This document shows positions 28,597-40,242 of a DNA stretch of 64,000 nucleotides, piece after piece. The DNA lies in the NCBI GenBank assembly GCA_027064095.1, contig JAMOQI010000080.1, positions 13,620 to 77,619 on the forward strand, given 5' to 3'. The DNA is from Bacteroidales bacterium. Lineage in GTDB: Bacteria; Bacteroidota; Bacteroidia; Bacteroidales; UBA1556. The notes below the pieces were generated by a model. It searched no databases and was not told where the DNA came from. It saw only the letters and a list, made by a program, of their open reading frames with translations. Numbering within the stretch: the stretch's first letter is position 1; each line of letters opens with the position of its first letter. Position numbers and translations under genes: made by a program.

Positions 28597-30513
28597 ATGC
28601 GGATTTTTATTTTTATAACATTAAGTATTTTATCCTATTCGTTATCTAAGGCACAACCGCCAAAGGATAGCATCGTTATGCTTAAAGTTACGGATATTAC
28701 TGCTAATAAATTATCCTTTGTTAATGATATTGATCTACAACATTTCGATGCAAAAGAGATATCAAACTATTCTGGACAAAGTCTGGACAATATCCTTAAC
28801 GACAAAGCTGGAATAAATATAAAGACATACGGCTACGGAGGAATGAGTAATGCCGGAATAAGAGGTGGAAATTCTTATCACACAGCTGTGTTATGGAACG
28901 GTGTTAACCTTCAAGACCCACTAAACGGTGGTTTTAATTTAAGTTTATATCCACTATTTTTTTCCAATGACATTAAGGTTCACAAGGGAGGCAGTAGTGC
29001 GCTTTTTGGAAGCGGAGCCATGGGAGGAAGTATTCATCTAACCAACAAAAAAGATTTTAATAAGGGCTTGCAGATAGATCTATTATCAGGGATAGCTAGT
29101 TTTTCAACTTATCAAATTGGAGCTGGCATAAAATACTCCGACAATAAGCGTTCAAGTCTTCTTAAAATATTTTACAAAACTGCTAAAAATGATTTTCCTT
29201 TTAAAAATACAGAAGTCTACGGTAGCCCAAAAGTACGACAGAAAAATGCGGAGCAAAAGCAGATTGGGGTATTACAAGAAAATGCTTTTTTATTGAGTAA
29301 ACATCAGAAGCTAACATCTGCAGTTTGTTATCAGCATAGCTATCAAAACATCCCAAGACAGATGAGCTCATATAATGCATCAGCTAGTCAAGAAAACGAG
29401 TCCCTTAGAGCACAATTAGCATGGAAATACTTTAATAAAAATTATTCTTTTCAGTTAAGAAATTCAAACTTACTATCCTCACTTTTATATAATGACAACA
29501 GTAATAGTATCAAAGCTCTACATAGTAGTTTTAGCAATATTTCCGAAGCTGAATTTAACTTAAAACTTAGAAAAATCGACAATTTAAAAATTGGACTAAT
29601 TAACACTTTTGAAAAATCTAATTCGGATGAACTAAAATCCACTCTGGATCAAAATCCACAACAAAACAAAACAGCTTTATTTATTTCATATAAAGCAATT
29701 TTCAGTAAGAAACTTTTTGCAATGGCAAATCTACGCAAAGAATATGTCAAAAATAGGTTTACGCCATTAACATACTATGGCAGTGTTAATTGGAAAGTTA
29801 TTAATTTATTGATTTTACATGCCAATATATCAAAAAATTATCGTACTCCTACTTTCAACGATTTGTTTTGGTCTGATGCCATGGCAAAAGGAAATCCGCA
29901 ATTACTAGACGAATCTTCTATAAGCGAAGAGTTCGGAATTAAATTAAAAACTAATAATAAGTTATTATCTATATCATTTAATGCCTACAATACTAATTAT
30001 AAAAATTTAATTCAATGGGTGCCAGAAAATGGCATCTGGACTCCTCTCAACAAAAAAGCAGTATGGTCGTATGGTATTGAAAGTTTACTCAATGTTAACA
30101 AAAAAATAGGAACTTTTAATCTATCGGCAAGTGGCTTAATCGCATTATCAAGATCTACAATTTCTGAGTTAAACGATAGCGAAAATAATGATATTATAAA
30201 CAAGCAACTAATATTAACTCCTCAATCAGAGGGAAATATTAGCTTCAAAGTTGAATATAAGAAATTTAGTTTTGAATATATTACAAAATATGTTGGAAAG
30301 CGTTATACTAACGCTAATAATACTGACTTTCTTGACACTTATTTGTTAGGAGATATTATCCTCAATAAAAGCTTTAAAATAAATAATAATAAACTCGCTA
30401 TAATGTTCCGATTGAATAATATTTGGAATACAGAATATGTTTCTATGCCTTCGTATGCTATGCCACTGTGTAATTACGAGCTAAGTATAAGATTATTTTT
30501 AAATAAAAAATAA
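28597..30513 (+). CDS. btuB: BtuB-like TonB-dependent cobalamin receptor
   Basis: Plug motifs (IKTYGYGG, IRGG..HTAVLWNG, GSGAMGGSI), YRTPTFNDL, NNIWN. Follows a B12 riboswitch. Confidence 0.8.
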   Translation: MRIFIFITLSILSYSLSKAQPPKDSIVMLKVTDITANKLSFVNDIDLQHFDAKEISNYSGQSLDNILNDKAGINIKTYGYGGMSNAGIRGGNSYHTAVLWNGVNLQDPLNGGFNLSLYPLFFSNDIKVHKGGSSALFGSGAMGGSIHLTNKKDFNKGLQIDLLSGIASFSTYQIGAGIKYSDNKRSSLLKIFYKTAKNDFPFKNTEVYGSPKVRQKNAEQKQIGVLQENAFLLSKHQKLTSAVCYQHSYQNIPRQMSSYNASASQENESLRAQLAWKYFNKNYSFQLRNSNLLSSLLYNDNSNSIKALHSSFSNISEAEFNLKLRKIDNLKIGLINTFEKSNSDELKSTLDQNPQQNKTALFISYKAIFSKKLFAMANLRKEYVKNRFTPLTYYGSVNWKVINLLILHANISKNYRTPTFNDLFWSDAMAKGNPQLLDESSISEEFGIKLKTNNKLLSISFNAYNTNYKNLIQWVPENGIWTPLNKKAVWSYGIESLLNVNKKIGTFNLSASGLIALSRSTISELNDSENNDIINKQLILTPQSEGNISFKVEYKKFSFEYITKYVGKRYTNANNTDFLDTYLLGDIILNKSFKINNNKLAIMFRLNNIWNTEYVSMPSYAMPLCNYELSIRLFLNKK

Positions 30514-30514
30514 A

Positions 30515-31576
30515 ATGCACAAAATCTATTTTTTAAATCTCGTTTTCTTTCTTCTTTTAACATCTTGTACCGAAAAAATAATAGAAGATCCTATTAAAAT
30601 CGCCCCAGATTCAAAAGCTATATATATAAGTAATGAGGGAGCATTTGGTTATAACAATGCCTCATTATCAGTTTACTACCCCGAGACAGACAAGCTTGAG
30701 AATAAAGTGTTTAAAAAAATAAATGGACGAGGATTAGGAGATGTATTACAATCGATATATCATTATGATGATAAACTTTATTATGTTGTTAATGCATCTT
30801 CGAAAATAGAGATTTCAAATGCAAATACATTTGAAGAAAAAGGTACAATTACAAATATTACTTCTCCCAGATATATGCATATAATTGATAATAAAGCATA
30901 TATAAGTTGCTGGGGCGATGGTGGACAAATTGTGGTAGTAGATTTAAAAGATAATAATATTGTCAAGAAAATTGATGTTGGTAATGGCCCTGAGAAGATA
31001 CTTTCCACCAAAGATAATTTAATAGTATGCAATAGTGGAGGCTTTACAACTGATAGCACTATTTCAATAATTAATTTAACAACAAATAATGTAATTAAGA
31101 CATTAAAAGTGGGGGATGTACCTTCTGATGTTAAATTTAATTCTGACTCAAGTTATTTTTATGTTTTATGCAAAGGAAAAACTATTTACGATGCTTCATG
31201 GAATGTAATTGGGCATACTGCCAGCAAATTGGTAAAAATATTAAGTAGTAATTTTACTATAGAAAGCAAAAATACTTTGTTTCAACAAAGACATCCTTCG
31301 CAGCTTGTTTACAATAATCTTGAAGACAAATTTTTTATAGGAGGAGGTTATGGATTCCAAGGCATTTATAATTACGAATTAGACCAAGAAAAACTTGACA
31401 CCAACGCCCTAATAGATAAAAGTTTTTATGGGATTTCTGCCGACAGTAAGGGAAACTTATATGGTTTTGAAAGTACAGACTTTTCAAGCCAAGGAAAAAT
31501 GGTAATAATGGATTTCCAAGGTAATATTCTTAAAGAAGCTAAAGTCGGCATTGGCCCAAATGGAATGACAGAATAA
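30515..31576 (+). CDS. BtuG-like beta-propeller surface lipoprotein
   Basis: LTSC lipobox, NEGAFG..NASLS, LGDVLQS, SPRY, VGIGP. 1 nt after btuB. Confidence 0.8.
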   Translation: MHKIYFLNLVFFLLLTSCTEKIIEDPIKIAPDSKAIYISNEGAFGYNNASLSVYYPETDKLENKVFKKINGRGLGDVLQSIYHYDDKLYYVVNASSKIEISNANTFEEKGTITNITSPRYMHIIDNKAYISCWGDGGQIVVVDLKDNNIVKKIDVGNGPEKILSTKDNLIVCNSGGFTTDSTISIINLTTNNVIKTLKVGDVPSDVKFNSDSSYFYVLCKGKTIYDASWNVIGHTASKLVKILSSNFTIESKNTLFQQRHPSQLVYNNLEDKFFIGGGYGFQGIYNYELDQEKLDTNALIDKSFYGISADSKGNLYGFESTDFSSQGKMVIMDFQGNILKEAKVGIGPNGMTE

Positions 31577-31592
31577 CCTAAATATTAATAAC

Positions 31593-32210
31593 CTATTTTT
31601 CTATATTATACCTAATTAAATTATAAGTCCTAACATTACCGTAAATTGGGAAATCCTGACGTAACACCAAACCTACACCCTTAGCATAGAAATAATGGCT
31701 TTTTGAAGTAAGATTAAGAAATGGCAAATATCTTGTCATCTCAGCATCTAAGGTATTAAAAGTCCCTGCCATACATATTGTAGGCTTATCAGGCATACGC
31801 ATAAGTCTATATGTAAAATTCAGTGTATCATTATTAAGACTAGGGATAACATTCTTGTATAATGTGTCAGTAAAGTTCATCGGGTTAAAAAACTTTTGGC
31901 CAGTCTCATCTACCAAATACATAGCAGAATCTCTAAGAAACTGCTTATAGATTAGTGAAGAACTACTTTTAAAAACATAATAAATATCCCCATTTATATT
32001 TGTATCTGACTCAATATAAGTACTATCGTAAGATACAAATGTAGCATTACCCAAAGTATCAACAGTAGAAACATCATAAACCCAATAACTTCCAACAGAC
32101 ATAGGAGTAAAAGTTTCAAGCCCAATTTTATAAATAGTAACTTCTTCTTGTTTTTTGCATGAGATAGTTGAAATAAAGACTATTAAACTTAAAATGTACA
32201 AATATTTCAT
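31593..32210 (-). CDS. Hypothetical lipoprotein, last gene of the PqqD operon
   Basis: TISC lipobox, PMSVGSYWVY, AGTF, YAKGVGLV. Confidence 0.65.
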   Translation of the reverse strand: MKYLYILSLIVFISTISCKKQEEVTIYKIGLETFTPMSVGSYWVYDVSTVDTLGNATFVSYDSTYIESDTNINGDIYYVFKSSSSLIYKQFLRDSAMYLVDETGQKFFNPMNFTDTLYKNVIPSLNNDTLNFTYRLMRMPDKPTICMAGTFNTLDAEMTRYLPFLNLTSKSHYFYAKGVGLVLRQDFPIYGNVRTYNLIRYNIEK

Positions 32211-32226
32211 AATAAACCTTTTAATG

Positions 32227-32841
32227 CTATTTAATATTTTCTAAACCGGATTTAGCAGATTCGTCACCAGGATTTAACCACATCACTCTTTCAAAAAGCA
32301 CTTTAGCTTCTCGATATTTACTCATATAATAATTATTCCAAGCTGAATTTAAAACCACATCGTAGGTAAAAGGATACATATTAAGTAGCAACTGTAAATA
32401 ATTATCCGCAGCTTTATATTCTGTCCTGTTGAGATAAATCTGCCCTAAACGAAGGTTTGCTGTATAATTATATTTATCAATCTTAAGGACTTTCTTATAC
32501 GCAATAATTACTTTTTCCCAATTTCCCATAGCAGAAGCGGGAAATGTTAAGCCCAACAAAGCCTCAATACTTAGAGGCCTTAATTCGGAGCATTTAGTAT
32601 AATAAGCAAGGCTTTCTGTATATTGACCGGCTTCGTATGATAGCCAAGCCAAGCGAATATTTATTTCATAAGAACTTGCATTATAAACCTTTTTCATCTG
32701 ATTTACCGCCTTTGAATATTCGCCTTTTACTTCATTTGCATAGCTATTTTTAAAAGCAACCTCAATATTATCTTGAGCCATAATAAAATTATAAAAACCT
32801 GCAAAAATTATTATTAAAGTTATTTTTCTTAGAACTTCCAT
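32227..32841 (-). CDS. Exported TPR protein
   Basis: Signal peptide and repeated LRL(A/G)...Y..A...Y helical pairs. Confidence 0.85.
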   Translation of the reverse strand: MEVLRKITLIIIFAGFYNFIMAQDNIEVAFKNSYANEVKGEYSKAVNQMKKVYNASSYEINIRLAWLSYEAGQYTESLAYYTKCSELRPLSIEALLGLTFPASAMGNWEKVIIAYKKVLKIDKYNYTANLRLGQIYLNRTEYKAADNYLQLLLNMYPFTYDVVLNSAWNNYYMSKYREAKVLFERVMWLNPGDESAKSGLENIK

Positions 32842-34148
32842 TGTAATCCTCCTAAAACGTTTATTTGTTGATAATTAATTTTTTCTAAATCGTAAATATT
32901 ACTATAACTAATCTCTTCCTTCTCTGTATATTTCCAAAAATATTGAGCACCTAAAAATAAATTAATATGCTTATTTAATACATAAATAAATTTACTCCCA
33001 ACCAATCCGTGGGTATGGTTGGGTATTTCGTAAGAATAATTATTACTTAAAAGTGTAAAATTCTTTACATCACCATAAATTCCGATAACCTCCAGCCATA
33101 ATTTAGGAATAAGTTTTAAACCAACTTTTTGATAAAATATTGGTCGTAAAGAGCCAATACCATCATGAAATGCATGTAATTGAGTAATAGAATAAAAGTC
33201 AATATTTCCTTTAGGGAACCAAGAGAAAGAAGCTCCTGCTTGTAACTGCAAATCGGATTTTCCAAAGTTAGAAACAACTCCACTTAAACCCCAAATACTA
33301 TTTTTATAGACATGCTCATATTGCATTCCACCCATAAAACTAATTGTTGAAAAATTAGCATAGCCCAAACTCATATCAAGGGAGTCAACAACACCATAAG
33401 TTTTTCCGTTGACTTTCGAAAAACCTCCGGCAATAGAAATATTATTTGTTCTATCAAACCAATACTTTGGCTTAATATTAACAGCATTCTGGCGCAAAGT
33501 AAACCTTCTTATCTCAAATACATTTGAATTCTCCACAGCAGTTATCATTTGTAACTTTGCATAGTTATAATTAAAATCAAGCTCAATATTCTTAGTTATT
33601 AAACCTGAATACATAATACCGGCCAAACCAATAGAATTTTCATAATTAGTTTGAGAAATTAAAGAATTATCATTTGCCCTAAATTTATTAGATTCTATCA
33701 ACGGGACCATATTTCCATATAAACCAAAAAAGTATAAATTACCCTTATAATTAATGCCGGCAAAATTCTCTATGGTATCGGCAACACCCCACAAATTATA
33801 TGCTGCCATATTCTGCTTTGAATACAAAAGAGACAGAAAATACTTTTCTTTAAAAAAGGAATCTAAAATTGCTGACTTATTCTGCTTATATGCTTTATTT
33901 AAATAGAATGAAGACATAAAAAAATTAGAAGTATAGTAATAAGCAACTCCTAATCTATAATTTAGATAATAATAATCAAATCCCTGCTTCTCAGCTTCTT
34001 TACCAAATATTATTAATGAGTCCCAACTAGAAGCATAATAATATGACAATGATTTTGACTCCACCGTCTTAAAATTTATATCCTCCTGTGCATTTGAAAC
34101 TATAACTCCTATTATAAAAGAAAAAACTATAATTAATATAAAACGCAT
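32829..34148 (-). CDS. Outer-membrane protein: N-terminal TPR-like region plus beta-barrel
   Basis: Signal MRFILIIV...SNA, YRLGVAYY helix, alternating aromatic beta-strands, C-terminal GGLQWKF beta-signal. Confidence 0.65.
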   Translation of the reverse strand: MRFILIIVFSFIIGVIVSNAQEDINFKTVESKSLSYYYASSWDSLIIFGKEAEKQGFDYYYLNYRLGVAYYYTSNFFMSSFYLNKAYKQNKSAILDSFFKEKYFLSLLYSKQNMAAYNLWGVADTIENFAGINYKGNLYFFGLYGNMVPLIESNKFRANDNSLISQTNYENSIGLAGIMYSGLITKNIELDFNYNYAKLQMITAVENSNVFEIRRFTLRQNAVNIKPKYWFDRTNNISIAGGFSKVNGKTYGVVDSLDMSLGYANFSTISFMGGMQYEHVYKNSIWGLSGVVSNFGKSDLQLQAGASFSWFPKGNIDFYSITQLHAFHDGIGSLRPIFYQKVGLKLIPKLWLEVIGIYGDVKNFTLLSNNYSYEIPNHTHGLVGSKFIYVLNKHINLFLGAQYFWKYTEKEEISYSNIYDLEKINYQQINVLGGLQWKF

Positions 34149-34152
34149 AATT

Positions 34153-36348
34153 CTATAATCTTTTAAATACAAATTCTTTATTATTCTTCTGTACTTTCCA
34201 AATAAAATCAGTAGAAGAATATTTAAATTCAGCGGTAATATTACCAATAGATTTATTAAATATTATATCATTATACTCAGACTTAAGCTCTAATTCACTA
34301 TCATCAAAAAACTGTTTTCTGGATAAATACCGTATTTTAAAAACAGGTCTAATAAAAATATAAAAAGGAGCTATAAAATCTTGCAAAAACATCAGTATTT
34401 TAGCATTAGAAATGGTTGCAGGTAAAAAGTCATTTACTTCAATACCTTTATAATAACCAAATATCATACGATATGAAGTCAGATAAAACCAATATAAAGG
34501 GTCAGATTTTGAGCCATTGTAGGATGTAAAAATCAGCTCTTCTTCATTAGCTCTAAAATAAGCATAGCTCTTTGTATAAGGACTATATAAATATGTTTGA
34601 TTATAAAAATCCAAACCCACAATCCATTTAATCTGCTCTTTATTAAACCCTTTATCAGAATTAGTTGATACCAACTCCCATTCTATTTCCATGCCTGGCA
34701 CAAACTTAAATTTCGATTTCAGACTAGAGTCTATTTCTATATTACTTACAATATCATTCAATTTAGGAGCCCCATTATTAACAAAATTAAACTTAGAATT
34801 CTCTTCGCTAATATATGGGCCAATGAGATAATTCAATGTCTTGGAACCGACATAAGGAGTAGATTGCAACTGAAAGTGCAAATGAGGAAATGGTGAACGA
34901 CCGGAATTACCTACTGTTGCGAGTATTTCTCCTTTTTTAACATACTGACCTTTTTCAACTCTAAAACTCCCTTTTTTGATATGACTTACTTGGCTGTAGA
35001 GATATTGAGCATGCTTAATTACAATACTATTACCCCAATTATGCTCAATATCCACATCTCCAATCTTGTTATCTTCATACAAATCAACAATTTCCACAAC
35101 TTCACCATCGGCAGGCGCAATTATAGGCTTATTGTAGCAGTAATAATCCTGTGGTAAATTACCATCACCATCATATTCCAAACCATTTTCGGCAATAACA
35201 AAATCCCATGCATGTTTCCAGTCCTTTTGATGAGTATATTCTCCATTATGAGCCTGATTAACAAGCCATTTTCCAGAGAATGGGAAATGAATAGAAATCA
35301 TTGATTTATCACCAAATCTGGTATAATAATTCTGATTAGAATATAAATTTTTCTCCGGAGAAAACTTCTGTAAACTAACCAGTTCCGGCTTTCTAAAAAA
35401 TCGTTCTCGATACTTTAATACTAACAAGAAGCTTATCACAACAATATTTACCGGCAGTGAATATGTTGAAAGTTGAAAAATAGAAAGCACGTCGGTAGTT
35501 CCTGTTACCAATATTGACAACAAAGGAATAAGTAGGACTACTATCACAAAAGAATATATGGAAGGTATAATAAAAAAACCACCAATGGCAATTGCCGAAA
35601 GAATAAAGTTAAAACCTATATATCCATAATTCAATTCTCCCAAACTGGCACCAATAAACTGGTAATAGAAATAGGCTGCATAGAACCCTATTAAACTAAG
35701 CAAGAAAGATATACGAGAATTTATAAGTAAAGCTATTGCAATAATAATACCTGCATAAATATTATATTGAAAGAAAATAGCTCCCAATGAAATAAAGTAT
35801 AGACTTAATGACTCTGGAATGGCAATATCATTAAATACAAAATGCGTTTGCAACAAATCATTACCACCAATCAAAACAATATCATTATAGGCATAAACGC
35901 CTATTTCACTTATTTCTAAACTCCCATAATGTCTGGCAGCAAGGCTAACCATCCATATACCAAACAAAAATGGTAAACTTAAAAACGGCAATGCATATTT
36001 ATTGAGAATAGCTTCCAATACAACAGTTACAAATAAAGTTAATATTGATGAAAATATTAGCAATAACAAAAACTGCCAGTTGAACTGATAATAAATACCT
36101 AATCCTAAACCAACTAATAAGCTATTAAAACCATATAATCCATTAATTATTTTAGTACGATTAAGTCCAAGAAAATAAGCTGTAATATGACTTGAGGCAA
36201 TGGCTATCACTCCGCTAACACCTGCATTTAAATTAAAGAAAGAAACCAATAACAATATCAAACCTAACAATCTACCATCAGAGAAAAATATCTGAGAGTA
36301 AGAATTCAATATGCTATAAACAACCGACTTTATTTTAGACTTAATCAT
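34153..36348 (-). CDS. Urea-transporter-like membrane domain fused to an M23 peptidase domain
   Basis: UT repeats (SQIFF, GLYGFN, LSLPF / GAIFF, GYIGFN, YSLPV), then HAWDF, WGNSIVIKH, VKKGEILATVGNSGRSPFPHLHFQ. Confidence 0.85.
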   Translation of the reverse strand: MIKSKIKSVVYSILNSYSQIFFSDGRLLGLILLLVSFFNLNAGVSGVIAIASSHITAYFLGLNRTKIINGLYGFNSLLVGLGLGIYYQFNWQFLLLLIFSSILTLFVTVVLEAILNKYALPFLSLPFLFGIWMVSLAARHYGSLEISEIGVYAYNDIVLIGGNDLLQTHFVFNDIAIPESLSLYFISLGAIFFQYNIYAGIIIAIALLINSRISFLLSLIGFYAAYFYYQFIGASLGELNYGYIGFNFILSAIAIGGFFIIPSIYSFVIVVLLIPLLSILVTGTTDVLSIFQLSTYSLPVNIVVISFLLVLKYRERFFRKPELVSLQKFSPEKNLYSNQNYYTRFGDKSMISIHFPFSGKWLVNQAHNGEYTHQKDWKHAWDFVIAENGLEYDGDGNLPQDYYCYNKPIIAPADGEVVEIVDLYEDNKIGDVDIEHNWGNSIVIKHAQYLYSQVSHIKKGSFRVEKGQYVKKGEILATVGNSGRSPFPHLHFQLQSTPYVGSKTLNYLIGPYISEENSKFNFVNNGAPKLNDIVSNIEIDSSLKSKFKFVPGMEIEWELVSTNSDKGFNKEQIKWIVGLDFYNQTYLYSPYTKSYAYFRANEEELIFTSYNGSKSDPLYWFYLTSYRMIFGYYKGIEVNDFLPATISNAKILMFLQDFIAPFYIFIRPVFKIRYLSRKQFFDDSELELKSEYNDIIFNKSIGNITAEFKYSSTDFIWKVQKNNKEFVFKRL

Positions 36349-36359
36349 ATAATAAAATA

Positions 36360-37718
36360 TTAGAGCTCAAATGTACTCAAATGTTCCGGAATCTTCTCAA
36401 AATTAGAGATACTGCTCATATCTTCACCTTTACGAATCACCTCTACTTTAGAATCTTCAGTAATCATTACCACCTTGGGACGTAGGGTAATAAACTGCAT
36501 CCACTGAGTCATATTATAAGCTCCAACGCGATGAATCACCACATTATCGCCTTTACTTAAAGGAGGCAAGCTTGCATTATCCCTAATAACATCAATATTC
36601 ATACAAAGTGGACCGTAGAGAACAGTATCTTCCACATGATGTGAGAACTCTTGAGCAGGAGTAATCTTATGATCGTACCAAAAACTTGTAAAAAGTAAAT
36701 TTACACCTATATTGAGAACGGTAGTACGCTTTCCTGTACTGCTTCTTTTGTTGGCAATAACTGTACCCAAAAGATAACCTGCATCATCAACTAATGCACG
36801 ACCTGTTTCCAATATCAAAGTTGGTAAATGATCGGGATGGATATTACTATTCAAGAGAGCAGAAGTAATAGCCTCTGCATAATCATCAAAAGTAGGGTTG
36901 GTATCTTCGGCAGGCAAATAAGCACCTTTAAGAGTATTTTTTGATGCAAAGCCTCCACCAAGGTCAATATATTTCACATAATGATCATACTTCTGTTTTA
37001 AGCCAACAGCAAGGTCAGCAAGCTTAGTTGCTGCTACACCATATGGTTCAGCAGTCATCATATATGTTCCAATGTGTGCATGAAGTCCTATAAGATCCAT
37101 TTTCTTTGACATCATAATCTTATTAAGAGCATCCCAAGCCTGCCCATTCTCATAATTAAATCCAAAACGGTCCCACATAGGATAAATTCCAGTATCCATA
37201 TTCACACGAATAGCCACTTGGGGTCGAATATTTAGTTCTTCCACTAAATTTAATATCATATAATACTCATCAAGGTGGTCGATATGAATAAGTGATTTAT
37301 TCTTAATAGCCATACGAAGATCATCCTCTGTTTTATCCGGTCCATTAAAGATAATATACCTACCATCAACACCATTGCCTCTAGCCTTATCATACTCAAA
37401 ACCAGAAACCACCTCTGCCCATGAGCCCTCTTGGTGGAAAGTGTTACATACAGCACTTATATAATTTGTCTTATAGCTCCAAGCAAACTGTACTTTAGGA
37501 TATCTAGTGCTGAAAGCACGATAAGCATTTCTGAAAGTTTTGCGCAATGTACTCTCAGATATTACATATACAGGAGAACCATGTTCTTCAATAATATCTT
37601 TTACAGCAACATTATCAATATGAGTTTTTGGAACAAACTCAGTCCTCATACCAAACTTATTTGGCATAGCATTCTCTAATCTTTTTATAAGCGGGCGTTC
37701 ATATTTCAATTTAGTCAT
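36360..37718 (-). CDS. Fold-type III PLP decarboxylase (LysA/ODC-like, atypical)
   Basis: GSPVYV, WSYKTN (PLP Lys), HAHIG, DLGGGF, ETGR, GPLCMNID, GAY. Confidence 0.85.
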   Translation of the reverse strand: MTKLKYERPLIKRLENAMPNKFGMRTEFVPKTHIDNVAVKDIIEEHGSPVYVISESTLRKTFRNAYRAFSTRYPKVQFAWSYKTNYISAVCNTFHQEGSWAEVVSGFEYDKARGNGVDGRYIIFNGPDKTEDDLRMAIKNKSLIHIDHLDEYYMILNLVEELNIRPQVAIRVNMDTGIYPMWDRFGFNYENGQAWDALNKIMMSKKMDLIGLHAHIGTYMMTAEPYGVAATKLADLAVGLKQKYDHYVKYIDLGGGFASKNTLKGAYLPAEDTNPTFDDYAEAITSALLNSNIHPDHLPTLILETGRALVDDAGYLLGTVIANKRSSTGKRTTVLNIGVNLLFTSFWYDHKITPAQEFSHHVEDTVLYGPLCMNIDVIRDNASLPPLSKGDNVVIHRVGAYNMTQWMQFITLRPKVVMITEDSKVEVIRKGEDMSSISNFEKIPEHLSTFEL

Positions 37719-37743
37719 AATATTTCTTTTATTAAGTTAAGGT

Positions 37744-38787
37744 TTATAATTCTCCTTGTGAAGATATTTTTTCAAATTCATCAATATTAACAATCATATC
37801 GTAGGCATAGCGGACAAACATTTTACCAATATCGTAACATTGATATGGTTTAATGGTATTACCAACAGCTAAATTTACCAATGCTTCAGGAATGTTTTGT
37901 CCAACACCAACAGCCAAATATATCCAAGCAGGCATTCTAGGATTTATTTCCAAAAGATGATAAGTGCCATCTTGCGAACGCATCAGTTCTAACTCAAATC
38001 CTCCACGCCATTTAGTTTGTTTTATAAAATGATGAGTAAGCTCAATAAGTTCACTATTATCAATAGATATTCCTCCCCAAGCTTTGCCTTTATCTGTAAT
38101 ATATTGTTTACGCATTGGCACTGCAGCAATAGTATTTCCTTCACCATCGCCAAGCCCTGTAACATTATACTCATCTCCACGGATATATTCCTGCACCACA
38201 ATTGGCAAACCCCATTTTGCACTTACTTTATTGAAGAATGTCTTGGCCTGCTCAATATTATAAGCGATATATGCATCGTAGAATTTGCCTTTTACTAATA
38301 TAGGAAAAGAATAATCGCTACCTAGCTGATACAATTCAGAAGGGTCATAAACTGCTTTAGACTGAGGAACATTAATATCATACTTTTTACCAAATTCCGG
38401 CAAATTAACTTTATGTCTTTCCTCAAATTGTTGTGAAGTAGGCAAGAAAGTTTTAATATTCATATCTAACAGTGCATTCTCAATTTTCATAAAAGAATAT
38501 AGTTCAGCATCAAAATTTGGAATAATAACATTAATGTTTTCCTTAGTATTTATATATTCTAATCTAGCTTTAAGAACTTCTGTTCCTGCCGAAGGATAAG
38601 GTATTTGATATATTTTATCAAAAAGATCGTGCATATAAATTCCAGGCTCCAACGACTCGTAACTAAATCCAATAAGCCTTGCATCAAATGAAGTTGCTTC
38701 TTTAAGTCCTCGCGCCACAGCAACACCTGGTCCAGGATTATCGATGGCATTTAAACCACTTAACGCAATTGTATATTTAGGCTTCAT
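37744..38787 (-). CDS. ATP-grasp carboxylate-amine ligase
   Basis: PILVKG, VQEYIRGDEY, WRGGFELE, LLEINPR. Start could also be 38805. Confidence 0.9.
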   Translation of the reverse strand: MKPKYTIALSGLNAIDNPGPGVAVARGLKEATSFDARLIGFSYESLEPGIYMHDLFDKIYQIPYPSAGTEVLKARLEYINTKENINVIIPNFDAELYSFMKIENALLDMNIKTFLPTSQQFEERHKVNLPEFGKKYDINVPQSKAVYDPSELYQLGSDYSFPILVKGKFYDAYIAYNIEQAKTFFNKVSAKWGLPIVVQEYIRGDEYNVTGLGDGEGNTIAAVPMRKQYITDKGKAWGGISIDNSELIELTHHFIKQTKWRGGFELELMRSQDGTYHLLEINPRMPAWIYLAVGVGQNIPEALVNLAVGNTIKPYQCYDIGKMFVRYAYDMIVNIDEFEKISSQGEL

Positions 38788-38791
38788 AATA

Positions 38792-39043
38792 CTATGCTTT
38801 ATCATTATCTGTTAACTGATATTGTGATATCATCTCCTTAAAATCTTGCAAATCTTTATCAAAAGTATTAGCATTAGTATCGTATTTACTTAGAAAATAC
38901 TCACAAATTTCGTTATCGCTCTTTCCTTCTTTTATCATATTCAAAATTTCAGTTCCTGTTTGATTTACTGAAAATGATTCTCCTGAACTTGGATTGAAGA
39001 GGAAACCACTGTCGCTAATTGCAATATTTTTATTAATACTCAT
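38792..39043 (-). CDS. Stand-alone PqqD-family protein / RiPP recognition element
   Basis: 83 aa, GFLFNPSSGESFSVNQTGTEILNMI followed by helices (KYD...FDKDLQDF), the PqqD beta3-alpha3 pattern. Confidence 0.85.
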   Translation of the reverse strand: MSINKNIAISDSGFLFNPSSGESFSVNQTGTEILNMIKEGKSDNEICEYFLSKYDTNANTFDKDLQDFKEMISQYQLTDNDKA

Positions 39044-39546
39044 AGTATAAGTTTTAATGATTAATAAATTAGAAATAACACAAAATCAATTGTCATAATT
39101 GAATGTATTATTTCATTGTGCAATTATAACGAGATATTTTAAGTATAGTTTATAGTATTCCTTGAAAAATGTGTAAAATTTTCTTATTCAACTACATTTA
39201 TTTAAATTTATTGAAAATCCAGAAAAGTATTGGTATATAATTGATGATAAGTTGATACAACTTTCTCTACTTTAGGGAGATTATTTTCTAAAATCATAGT
39301 TTTAAAAGCACTTATAATATTGATGACCAATTGATTATGTAATCAAAGGATAAATTTTTATCGAATAATAATAATTGTAAATATATATTATATAAAAAAA
39401 TAATTTCCTATTCCAACTTAAAGACTTAAACTAAAGTTAAAATCTCATCTTTATGAAGATATCATTATTAACAGAGAGATAATTGAGGCTTTTCAAAAGC
39501 CGGCTGAAACGCTAAAAATAAAATATAAAATTACAGTTCTACAATT

Positions 39547-40242
39547 CTATCTTAAACCTTTTACTTTTGAAATAGCAGCAACAAATTCTTTAAGATAGAA
39601 AGGTTCGAAATATGCTACATCTACAAAGTCTCCAGCAATAAATTTATTATAAGATAAAGAAACCATACCGACCGCTGTTGCTTCTACATCTTCGACAAGT
39701 ACAGCATTTTTGTGATTAATAATATTCATACATTTTGCTGCACCATCACCAAAAAAAAGAACTTTATGAGAATCAAGTTCTGATTTAAAACTATTCTCAT
39801 CAACAACTATTGCTGTAATATCATTTTTATTATTCAACTCAAAATCAAAGGTTTGAGAATATACTTCCATTCTTCTGGCATCTATCATAGGTCGAAAAAG
39901 AACATTTTTATCCTTATCATGCAACAGCTTTGCCAAAGCTGCCATACTATGTAAGGTACTAATAGAAATCAAAGGAATATCAAGAGCATAGCAAAGTCCC
40001 TTTGCTGTGGAAGTTCCAATTCTTAAACCTGTATATGAACCAGGGCCTTTACTTATAGCAATAGCTGATAAAGAAGAATACTCTATCTTATTTCTCTTTA
40101 ATAATTCATCAATAAAAGGGGCAAGCTTAACAGCATGAGAATTCCCTTCTTTATTTTCAATATCGTCGAGCAACACCCCATCTTTTGATAAGCTAACTGC
40201 ACATACTTTTGTTGAAGTTTCAATATTGAGGATATAAGTCAT
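39547..40242 (-). CDS. tsaB: tRNA t6A biosynthesis protein TsaB
   Basis: ILNIETST, GPGSYTGLRIG, IDARRMEVY, EPFYLK. Confidence 0.95.
   Translation of the reverse strand: MTYILNIETSTKVCAVSLSKDGVLLDDIENKEGNSHAVKLAPFIDELLKRNKIEYSSLSAIAISKGPGSYTGLRIGTSTAKGLCYALDIPLISISTLHSMAALAKLLHDKDKNVLFRPMIDARRMEVYSQTFDFELNNKNDITAIVVDENSFKSELDSHKVLFFGDGAAKCMNIINHKNAVLVEDVEATAVGMVSLSYNKFIAGDFVDVAYFEPFYLKEFVAAISKVKGLR

Follow-up and report, generated by a model that had tools for sequence, protein, structure and literature searches.

A Bacteroidales operon joining a PqqD-family protein, an ATP-grasp ligase, a channel-hydrolase fusion and a decarboxylase with a leader-like tail

Introduction

Which peptide does a RiPP recognition element (RRE; RiPP, a peptide synthesized by ribosomes and modified post-translationally) recognize if no precursor peptide is encoded beside it? 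This question is raised by an operon in a 64,000-nucleotide stretch of DNA from a Bacteroidales bacterium (contig JAMOQI010000080.1, hereafter the window), where seven open reading frames (ORFs), all on the minus strand, occupy positions 31593-39043. A preliminary description of the locus had proposed a trans-envelope pathway that makes an amine, ligates it and exports the product, and had noted that a convincing precursor ORF is missing. As outlined below, the N-terminal tail of the decarboxylase encoded in the operon itself is the likely missing precursor. The features on which this proposal is built are the following.

38792..39043, minus strand: discrete RRE of the PqqD family and YxxP-binding type, 83 aa (Pfam PqqD, E = 3e-9), with conserved N27 and D64
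37744..38784, minus strand: ATP-grasp ligase, 346 aa, or 353 aa from an upstream ATG at 38805 (ATPgrasp_Ter, E = 2e-13)
36360..37718, minus strand: fold-III pyridoxal phosphate (PLP) decarboxylase, 452 aa (Pfam, E = 6e-29), closest to FigC
37650..37718, minus strand: residues 1-23 of the decarboxylase, an N-terminal tail resembling a leader, with the motif Y6-x-x-P9-x-I11 and, at +15, Lys21 as proposed carrier
34153..36348, minus strand: urea transporter (UT)-fold channel with M23 and beta-rich domains (UT at residues 12-311, E = 1e-58; M23 at residues 406-495, E = 4e-16)

The decarboxylase tail as a probable built-in leader

For comparison, 119 loci from genomes (40 handles plus 80 named loci, with L107 dropped as a duplicate of L011) and 80 loci from metagenomes were assembled, giving 199 in total; all were retrieved via the ligase and hence are not independent, and their GC contents span 31-78%. 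The RRE finds its nearest solved chains in TbiB1 (5v1u, E = 1e-13) and TfuB1 (6jx3, E = 3e-8). It reaches a score of only 13 against a cut-off of 46 in the model for PqqD of pyrroloquinoline quinone (PQQ) biosynthesis (TIGR03859), no PqqA, PqqB, PqqC or PqqE lies beside it, and neither pqq nor radical SAM genes occur within the cluster, as had been stated before. Discrete lasso-type RREs bind a leader motif [Y/W]xxPx[L/V/I/F/A] (PMC13381572, PMC12710340), and it is this motif that the decarboxylase tail matches.

At the start of the decarboxylase, [YF]xxPx[IVLM] is found in 117/117 genome loci, each time with a lysine exactly 15 residues beyond the aromatic position (117/117). Conservation within the tail is confined to two islands, residues 6-11 (0.86) and 20-23 (0.92), with variable spacers between (0.52 and 0.56). 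Elsewhere in the genome loci, the same motif occurs in none of 114 RREs, in none of 120 ligases and in 53 of 1068 other ORFs. Metagenome tails, among which Trp variants of the aromatic position are present, carry the lysine at +15 in 67/70 cases and at +14 in two, with one tail mis-parsed and one more unparsed. Three of three parsed paralogues (of 12 fetched), used as tail controls, lack the motif, and a genome-wide scan of G000 matched 16 of 13671 ORFs, namely the decarboxylase and 15 unrelated, mostly very short ones. A free precursor ORF was considered and rejected, as no conserved short YxxP ORF appeared among 4543 intergenic starts in the 119 genome loci; likewise, no YxxP motif is found in the short ORFs of the leader region upstream of the RRE gene (39044..39546). 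The earlier remark on the missing precursor thus holds for a free short ORF, while a precursor-like sequence does exist on the decarboxylase.

Natural gene fusions add to this picture: 14 ligase-decarboxylase fusions, one RRE-ligase and one decarboxylase-channel fusion were found (P0180, P0271-P0284, P0210). All 14 ligase-decarboxylase fusions retain the tail motif, although both enzymes are already joined, which indicates that the RRE does more than tether. Two other roles derived from known systems were considered as well. Since taking Y6 as position -17 places G23 at +1, lasso-like cleavage at F22/G23 was examined; it is not favoured, the equivalent position being Pro in many fusions. A LysW-like carrier role of the RRE was rejected because its C-terminus is not conserved.

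Covariation and complex prediction

According to PMC13381572, LppB grips the Pro of its leader through N33 and forms a hydrogen bond to the leader Tyr with D70. N27 and D64 of the operon's RRE have the same 37-residue spacing and, by analogy, Asp64 would contact the hydroxyl group of the tail Tyr. Across 176 RRE/decarboxylase pairs, D64 is kept in 164/165 loci with a Tyr tail and in 0/6 loci with a Phe tail. A complex prediction of the RRE with tail residues 1-32 scored 0.46 versus 0.02 for the best control, with contacts agreeing to at least 93% and a partner pLDDT (predicted local distance difference test) of at least 57. Calibration of this method brought 116 of 157 solved pairs to the mark, compared with 2 of 215 mismatched ones; at 0.60 or under, only 18 solved pairs and both mismatches passed. 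The prediction backs the pairing weakly.

Several points weigh against an RRE-tail contact of this kind. The equivalence with LppB was drawn from residue spacing, not from direct alignment; Trp tails keep D64 in 4/5 cases, and L074 pairs a Tyr tail with His64. On a tree of 86 decarboxylase cores, the Phe-tail cases correspond to 2-3 independent events, so that the Fisher value of 2e-10 overstates the covariation. The positive complex prediction, in turn, may be explained by likeness to solved lasso RRE complexes. On balance, the RRE very probably binds the decarboxylase tail.

Conservation of the operon

Where the flanks were long enough for a locus to be counted, the RRE adjoins the ligase in 111/112 genome and 68/69 metagenome loci, the decarboxylase in 115/115 and 66/66, and the channel fusion in 107/110 and 50/50. 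The four exceptions searched (three without an adjacent channel and one without an adjacent RRE) have the respective gene elsewhere in the genome. The remaining three genes of the operon and its upstream region are these:

32829..34148, minus strand: signal peptide, tetratricopeptide repeats (TPR) and predicted outer-membrane beta-barrel, 439 aa, YaiO-like (from homologue fold and C-terminal ends)
32227..32841, minus strand: TPR protein, 204 aa, with signal-peptide-like N-terminus, likely periplasmic (Pfam TPR)
31593..32210, minus strand: predicted lipoprotein (Cys18, from sequence), a co-oriented passenger in 2/91 and 0/30 loci
39044..39546: AT-rich upstream leader of 503 bp preceding the RRE gene

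The barrel protein stands beside the core in 81/91 genome and 22/30 metagenome loci and the TPR protein in 80/91 and 26/30. The lipoprotein does so in only 2/91 genome loci, both from genomes of the same genus, and in no metagenome locus (0/30), and it was therefore rejected as a conserved member. What emerges is a four-gene core of RRE, ATP-grasp ligase, decarboxylase and channel-hydrolase, which the TPR and barrel genes usually join, with the lipoprotein as a single passenger.

The preliminary description of the layout is borne out: all seven co-oriented ORFs are in place, separated by 7, 25, 11, 4, -13 and 16 bp (with ATG starts at 38784 and 34148), and the leader is AT-rich, positions 39001-40000 having 26% GC versus about 31% across the window. 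Its expectation of a co-occurring system was confirmed for six of the seven genes, which travel together over the 199 loci; the lipoprotein has to be removed from it. Of the supposed span across the envelope, the cytoplasmic and inner-membrane parts stand, and the outer-membrane part usually does; the flanks of some loci lack the TPR and barrel genes.

Pfam assigns PqqD, ATP-grasp, fold-III PLP decarboxylase, urea transporter plus M23 and TPR families to the operon proteins, while the barrel protein and the lipoprotein match no Pfam family, and none of the four core proteins reaches the cut-off of a specific-enzyme NCBIfam model. The ligase was matched in 26 of 300 other genomes sampled across the phylum, and three ligase-less genomes contained no match to the RRE. 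Named homologues with 62-65% identity belong to Bacteroidales or Bacteroidetes, and named relatives carry the operon into phyla beyond its own. L094 contains the operon on a Melainabacteria-labelled contig that may have been mis-binned or transferred. A plasmid search gave no match, and among RNA runs no holder was listed, which does not count as evidence.

Ligase and decarboxylase

The ligase conserves the ATP lysines K125 and K165, E266 and the metal motif E279-x-N281-x-R283. Its nearest structures are 2pn1 and domains of carbamoyl-phosphate synthase, and its B-domain loop is short. In most homologues the C-terminus (window 37744-37760) is a conserved G-E-L, which could be an alternative carboxylate donor. 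Tandem double ATP-grasp proteins of about 710 aa, or split in two, occur in L131-L133, L136 and L190 as well as in P0123 and related proteins; EINNRFPSW is often found in their first half and EINPRF in the second, which suggests two ligation steps. The ligase match of G104 carries one internal TAG.

In the decarboxylase, K83, H215, E304 and C372 are invariant and the PLP residues are all kept. Its best solved relative is FigC (7kh2, E = 8e-56, versus 7e-38 for diaminopimelate (DAP) decarboxylase). The two share a Cys-Met loop where LysA has Cys-Glu, and a neutral specificity helix replaces the RPALY/RPAMY element of LysA. The pocket as a whole is neutral (N340/F343/T344/W347, C-M-N and Q405/Q408/F409), and CMN, NxxFTxxWY and F409 are found in 67-68 of 68 decarboxylases. 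Phe409 stands where DAP decarboxylase has the Tyr of its D-specificity site. With 208 bits against a cut-off of 298, the protein also falls short of the LysA model TIGR01048, and with 226 against 500 bits it stays below the FslC model NF041039.

These features bear on the idea that the operon is a module of lysine biosynthesis or the cell wall, in which the decarboxylase replaces LysA and the M23 domain cuts peptidoglycan or its precursors. In its favour, M23 enzymes are normally peptidoglycan hydrolases, and no second fold-III decarboxylase was found in G000, G001, G007 and G013, the genome of the window being included, a finding which at the same time counts against the route proposed below; G000 is 86% complete and has DapF, and lysine auxotrophy or incomplete assemblies are possible in these four cases. 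The missing Cys-Glu and RPALY/RPAMY elements and Phe409 contradict it, G032 has a separate LysA-like gene, and the predicted placement of the M23 domain and its replacement by a sirtuin, both described below, fit it poorly as well. We regard it as very improbable, and the enzyme is no plain LysA. The order of steps proposed before, amine formation followed by ligation, has to be turned around: ligation followed by decarboxylation is likelier, as with FigC and BtrK, which act on side-chain-linked amino acids (PMC7857480).

The channel-hydrolase fusion and its sirtuin variant

The fourth core protein consists of a channel (residues 1-312), an M23 metallo-amidohydrolase (about 350-535) and a beta-rich domain (540-731), all of which are recovered in a model with a pLDDT of 87. 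Foldseek matches the ten-helix UT fold (E = 3e-13) and also assigns the M23 part to M23, while the beta-rich domain gave no listed Foldseek match and no usable Atlas match. Channel-M23 proteins of 565-573 aa (L058, L062, L070 and L072) lack this C-terminal domain, encoded at window 34153-34730, so it seems dispensable. H373, D382, H456, H489 and H491 of the M23 domain are present in 60/60 sequences and presumably act as zinc ligands and catalytic histidines, judging from the motifs of the family. The alternating Lys/Arg counts, residues 312-330 included, place both channel termini inside, and M23 is therefore predicted to be cytoplasmic.

Urea transporters such as UT-A, UT-B and dvUT have the recognition motif Q-V-Y-T / Q-V-F-T (PMC11589576). 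The operon's channel has the UT fold in common with them and differs in its fused hydrolase and in the motif, which reads Q19-I20-F74-S124 / A190-I191-F246-S297 (Q to A, T to S twice, Y to F); this suggests a solute other than urea. Its score in the urea transporter NCBIfam model is 126 against a cut-off of 275.

In L131-L133, the same operon with a tandem ligase has the channel fused to a sirtuin in place of M23. This form comprises 62 clusters, with named members from Rokubacteria/Methylomirabilota, Nitrospinota and Anaerolineae. Among 45 aligned sequences, the zinc ribbon is intact and three residues never vary, namely the catalytic His, E359 and F362. The latter two align without gaps to Y64 and R67 of Sir2Af1, by which that enzyme binds the succinyl carboxylate (PMC4253809). 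The acyl pocket is hence ExxF in 45/45 cases, not the YxxR of desuccinylases. An acidic residue at this carboxylate-binding site suggests an acyl chain with an ammonium at its tip, as would be expected if decarboxylation comes after ligation. At the same time, a predicted cytoplasmic M23 domain that is interchangeable with a sirtuin argues against cell-wall remodelling, a correction to the preliminary description.

Proposed mechanism

From these observations, the following route can be proposed, to which we give an even chance as a whole. The RRE would grip the YxxPxI leader in the N-terminal tail of the decarboxylase itself. The ATP-grasp enzyme would take a dicarboxylic L-amino acid, probably glutamate, and join its side-chain carboxylate to Lys21 of the tail in an amide bond. 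The decarboxylase would then strip off the alpha-carboxyl group to leave an amine-tipped acyl-lysine, such as 4-aminobutyryl-lysine. Release of the acyl unit would fall to the hydrolase fused to the channel, which is M23 in the window and a sirtuin in another lineage, and would take place where the channel is predicted to open into the cytoplasm. The putative outer-membrane step would likely fall to the TPR/barrel pair. Taken singly, acylation of Lys21 and its removal is a proposition with arguments about equally strong on either side, and glutamate as the ligated unit is a tentative choice.

Three findings count against this route in addition to those already given. At +15, the 14 ligase-decarboxylase fusions have Arg in 11, Lys in two and Ala in one case, and arginine is unable to take an ATP-grasp amide. 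The sirtuin product O-acyl-ADP-ribose is too large for a urea-type pore without further hydrolysis. Finally, the barrel was not detected in 10/91 genome and 8/30 metagenome loci, the flanks of L132 and L133, both of the sirtuin form, being among them.

The Lys-to-Arg replacements would fit a tail that serves for docking alone, holding RRE, ligase and decarboxylase together in a complex, with the +15 base binding a partner or substrate; free small molecules would then be converted into an N-acyl amine that is trimmed by the channel-fused hydrolase, in a FigA/FigC-like manner. The short B-domain loop of the ligase, which a partner could complete, and the closest relative of the decarboxylase, which acts on a free compound, agree with this. 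However, unfused tails have Lys at the counts given above and never Arg, the motif persists where ligase and decarboxylase are fused already, and sirtuins act on acyl-lysine in peptides; a purely docking tail is rather unlikely.

The sirtuin is also a classic eraser that costs NAD+, and its product, O-acyl-ADP-ribose, would suit a switch. The decarboxylase would then be tuned by acylating Lys21, and the eraser fused to the channel would take the acyl group off in response to a solute that binds to the channel or passes through it. The altered pore motif (Q to A and two T to S) is compatible with such sensing, as are the two-component, LytTR, AraC-like and ECF (extracytoplasmic function) regulators that recur upstream. 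Yet the ExxF pocket suggests that the acyl group itself is decarboxylated, tying the decarboxylase to the same chain, and the linkage to the TPR/barrel pair is left unexplained, which makes a switch decidedly improbable.

Within the proposed carrier route, an oligomeric product can be envisaged as well, since each decarboxylation exposes a fresh amine. Repeated loading and decarboxylation on a reusable leader and carrier lysine of the enzyme would yield an oligoamide of the 4-aminobutyrate type, to be released by the hydrolase and passed to the surface via the TPR protein and the YaiO-like barrel; we consider this extension unlikely. If the carrier route is true, it represents a lysine-amide carrier strategy and a new protein acylation with two unrelated erasers. 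It would also give an M23 enzyme an intracellular role, a sirtuin a pocket of reversed charge and a UT-fold channel a solute other than urea.

Relation to known systems

In its proposed working, the operon resembles BtrI/BtrJ/BtrK or the scaffold FzmZ combined with recognition of the lasso type, yet it does not belong to the lasso, PQQ, LysA, FigC or Btr systems. No match to a characterised pathway emerged, in line with the preliminary description, and no paper on this gene combination was found in a literature search that left out subscription journals and supplements; the RRE datasets of PMC12710340 may list the proteins. Because genome mining for RREs presupposes a short precursor of its own, it misses systems whose leader is carried by an enzyme.

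With the lasso/LPP systems (TbiB1, TfuB1 and LppB; PMC13381572), the operon has in common the discrete PF05402 RRE, the [Y/W]xxPx[hydrophobic] motif and the Asn/Asp spacing. It differs in lacking a free precursor, a B2 protease, a lasso cyclase and a kinase, the leader being the N-terminus of a 452-aa enzyme; neither a B2 protease nor an asparagine-synthetase-like cyclase was found among the core genes or recurrent neighbours, and one transglutaminase-like neighbour occurs in L033 only.

Butirosin biosynthesis employs BtrJ as ATP-grasp enzyme, and BtrI/BtrJ/BtrK resemble the operon in combining such an enzyme with a fold-III decarboxylase on a carrier-bound amino acid. BtrK acts on glutamyl-S-BtrI (PMC7857480). 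The operon, in contrast, has no carrier protein or thioester (no phosphopantetheinyl carrier protein was found among the core genes or recurrent neighbours), its proposed carrier being a lysine amide in the tail of the decarboxylase itself, and it adds an RRE and a channel-fused hydrolase. The rhizoferrin route of FigA/FigC (FslA/FslC; PMC7857480) shares the Cys-Met loop and the ligate-then-decarboxylate logic; the operon differs from it in the low FslC score, and neither a gene for an NIS (NRPS-independent siderophore) synthetase nor a conserved siderophore receptor is found nearby. Fosfazinomycin FzmZ is similar in that a YxxP peptide scaffolds a small molecule which is later released; it is, however, a free 22-mer that is consumed (PMC13622209), whereas the proposed scaffold of the operon is part of an enzyme and reusable.

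The lysine-biosynthetic carrier LysW offers its C-terminal Glu carboxylate on a separate protein, which is loaded by the ATP-grasp enzyme LysX before modification and peptidase release. In the operon, an internal Lys amine is proposed instead, and the C-terminus of the RRE is not conserved.

Predicted outer-membrane part and neighbourhood

The tentative YaiO-like assignment of the barrel protein comes from its homologue in L124, a locus of Pedobacter paludis R-8 that has the operon in its six-gene form; the homologue reached a feature score of 0.98 and TM values of 0.62-0.73 to YaiO clusters. The C-terminal ends of the barrel proteins are WKF-like, and the window's protein has no Pfam match to the YaiO family PF19413. 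The homologue resembles YaiO-family barrels with TPR; no glycosyltransferase lies beside the barrel of the operon.

Many loci, e.g., L013, L051, L066 and L074, have recurrent regulatory genes upstream of the operon, among them LytTR two-component pairs and hybrid kinases as well as AraC-like regulators and ECF sigma factors. On the opposite side, at window 28597-31576 on the plus strand, a TonB-dependent receptor most like BtuB (below cut-off) is followed by a DUF5074 beta-propeller lipoprotein. This is likely a cobalamin-uptake pair, which converges on the operon with stop codons 16 bp apart; lying on the opposite strand and being absent from the recurrent neighbours, it was rejected as an operon partner.

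A family of 260-315 aa proteins adjoins the operon in 19 loci (L019, L020, L021, L025, L027, L037, L042, L102, L156, L159, L161, L163, L164, L167, L169, L187, L191, L200 and L202), and those members scanned have a type IX secretion C-terminal domain. In L102, L167 and L187, it separates the RRE gene from that of the ligase. It was not detected in G000 and is a possible surface partner of the operon. Furthermore, a membrane acyltransferase (Acyl_transf_3/HGSNAT-like) is found beside the operon in 10 loci (L022, L037, L043, L044, L102, L144, L167, L180, L187 and L209), which could acylate an exported amine.

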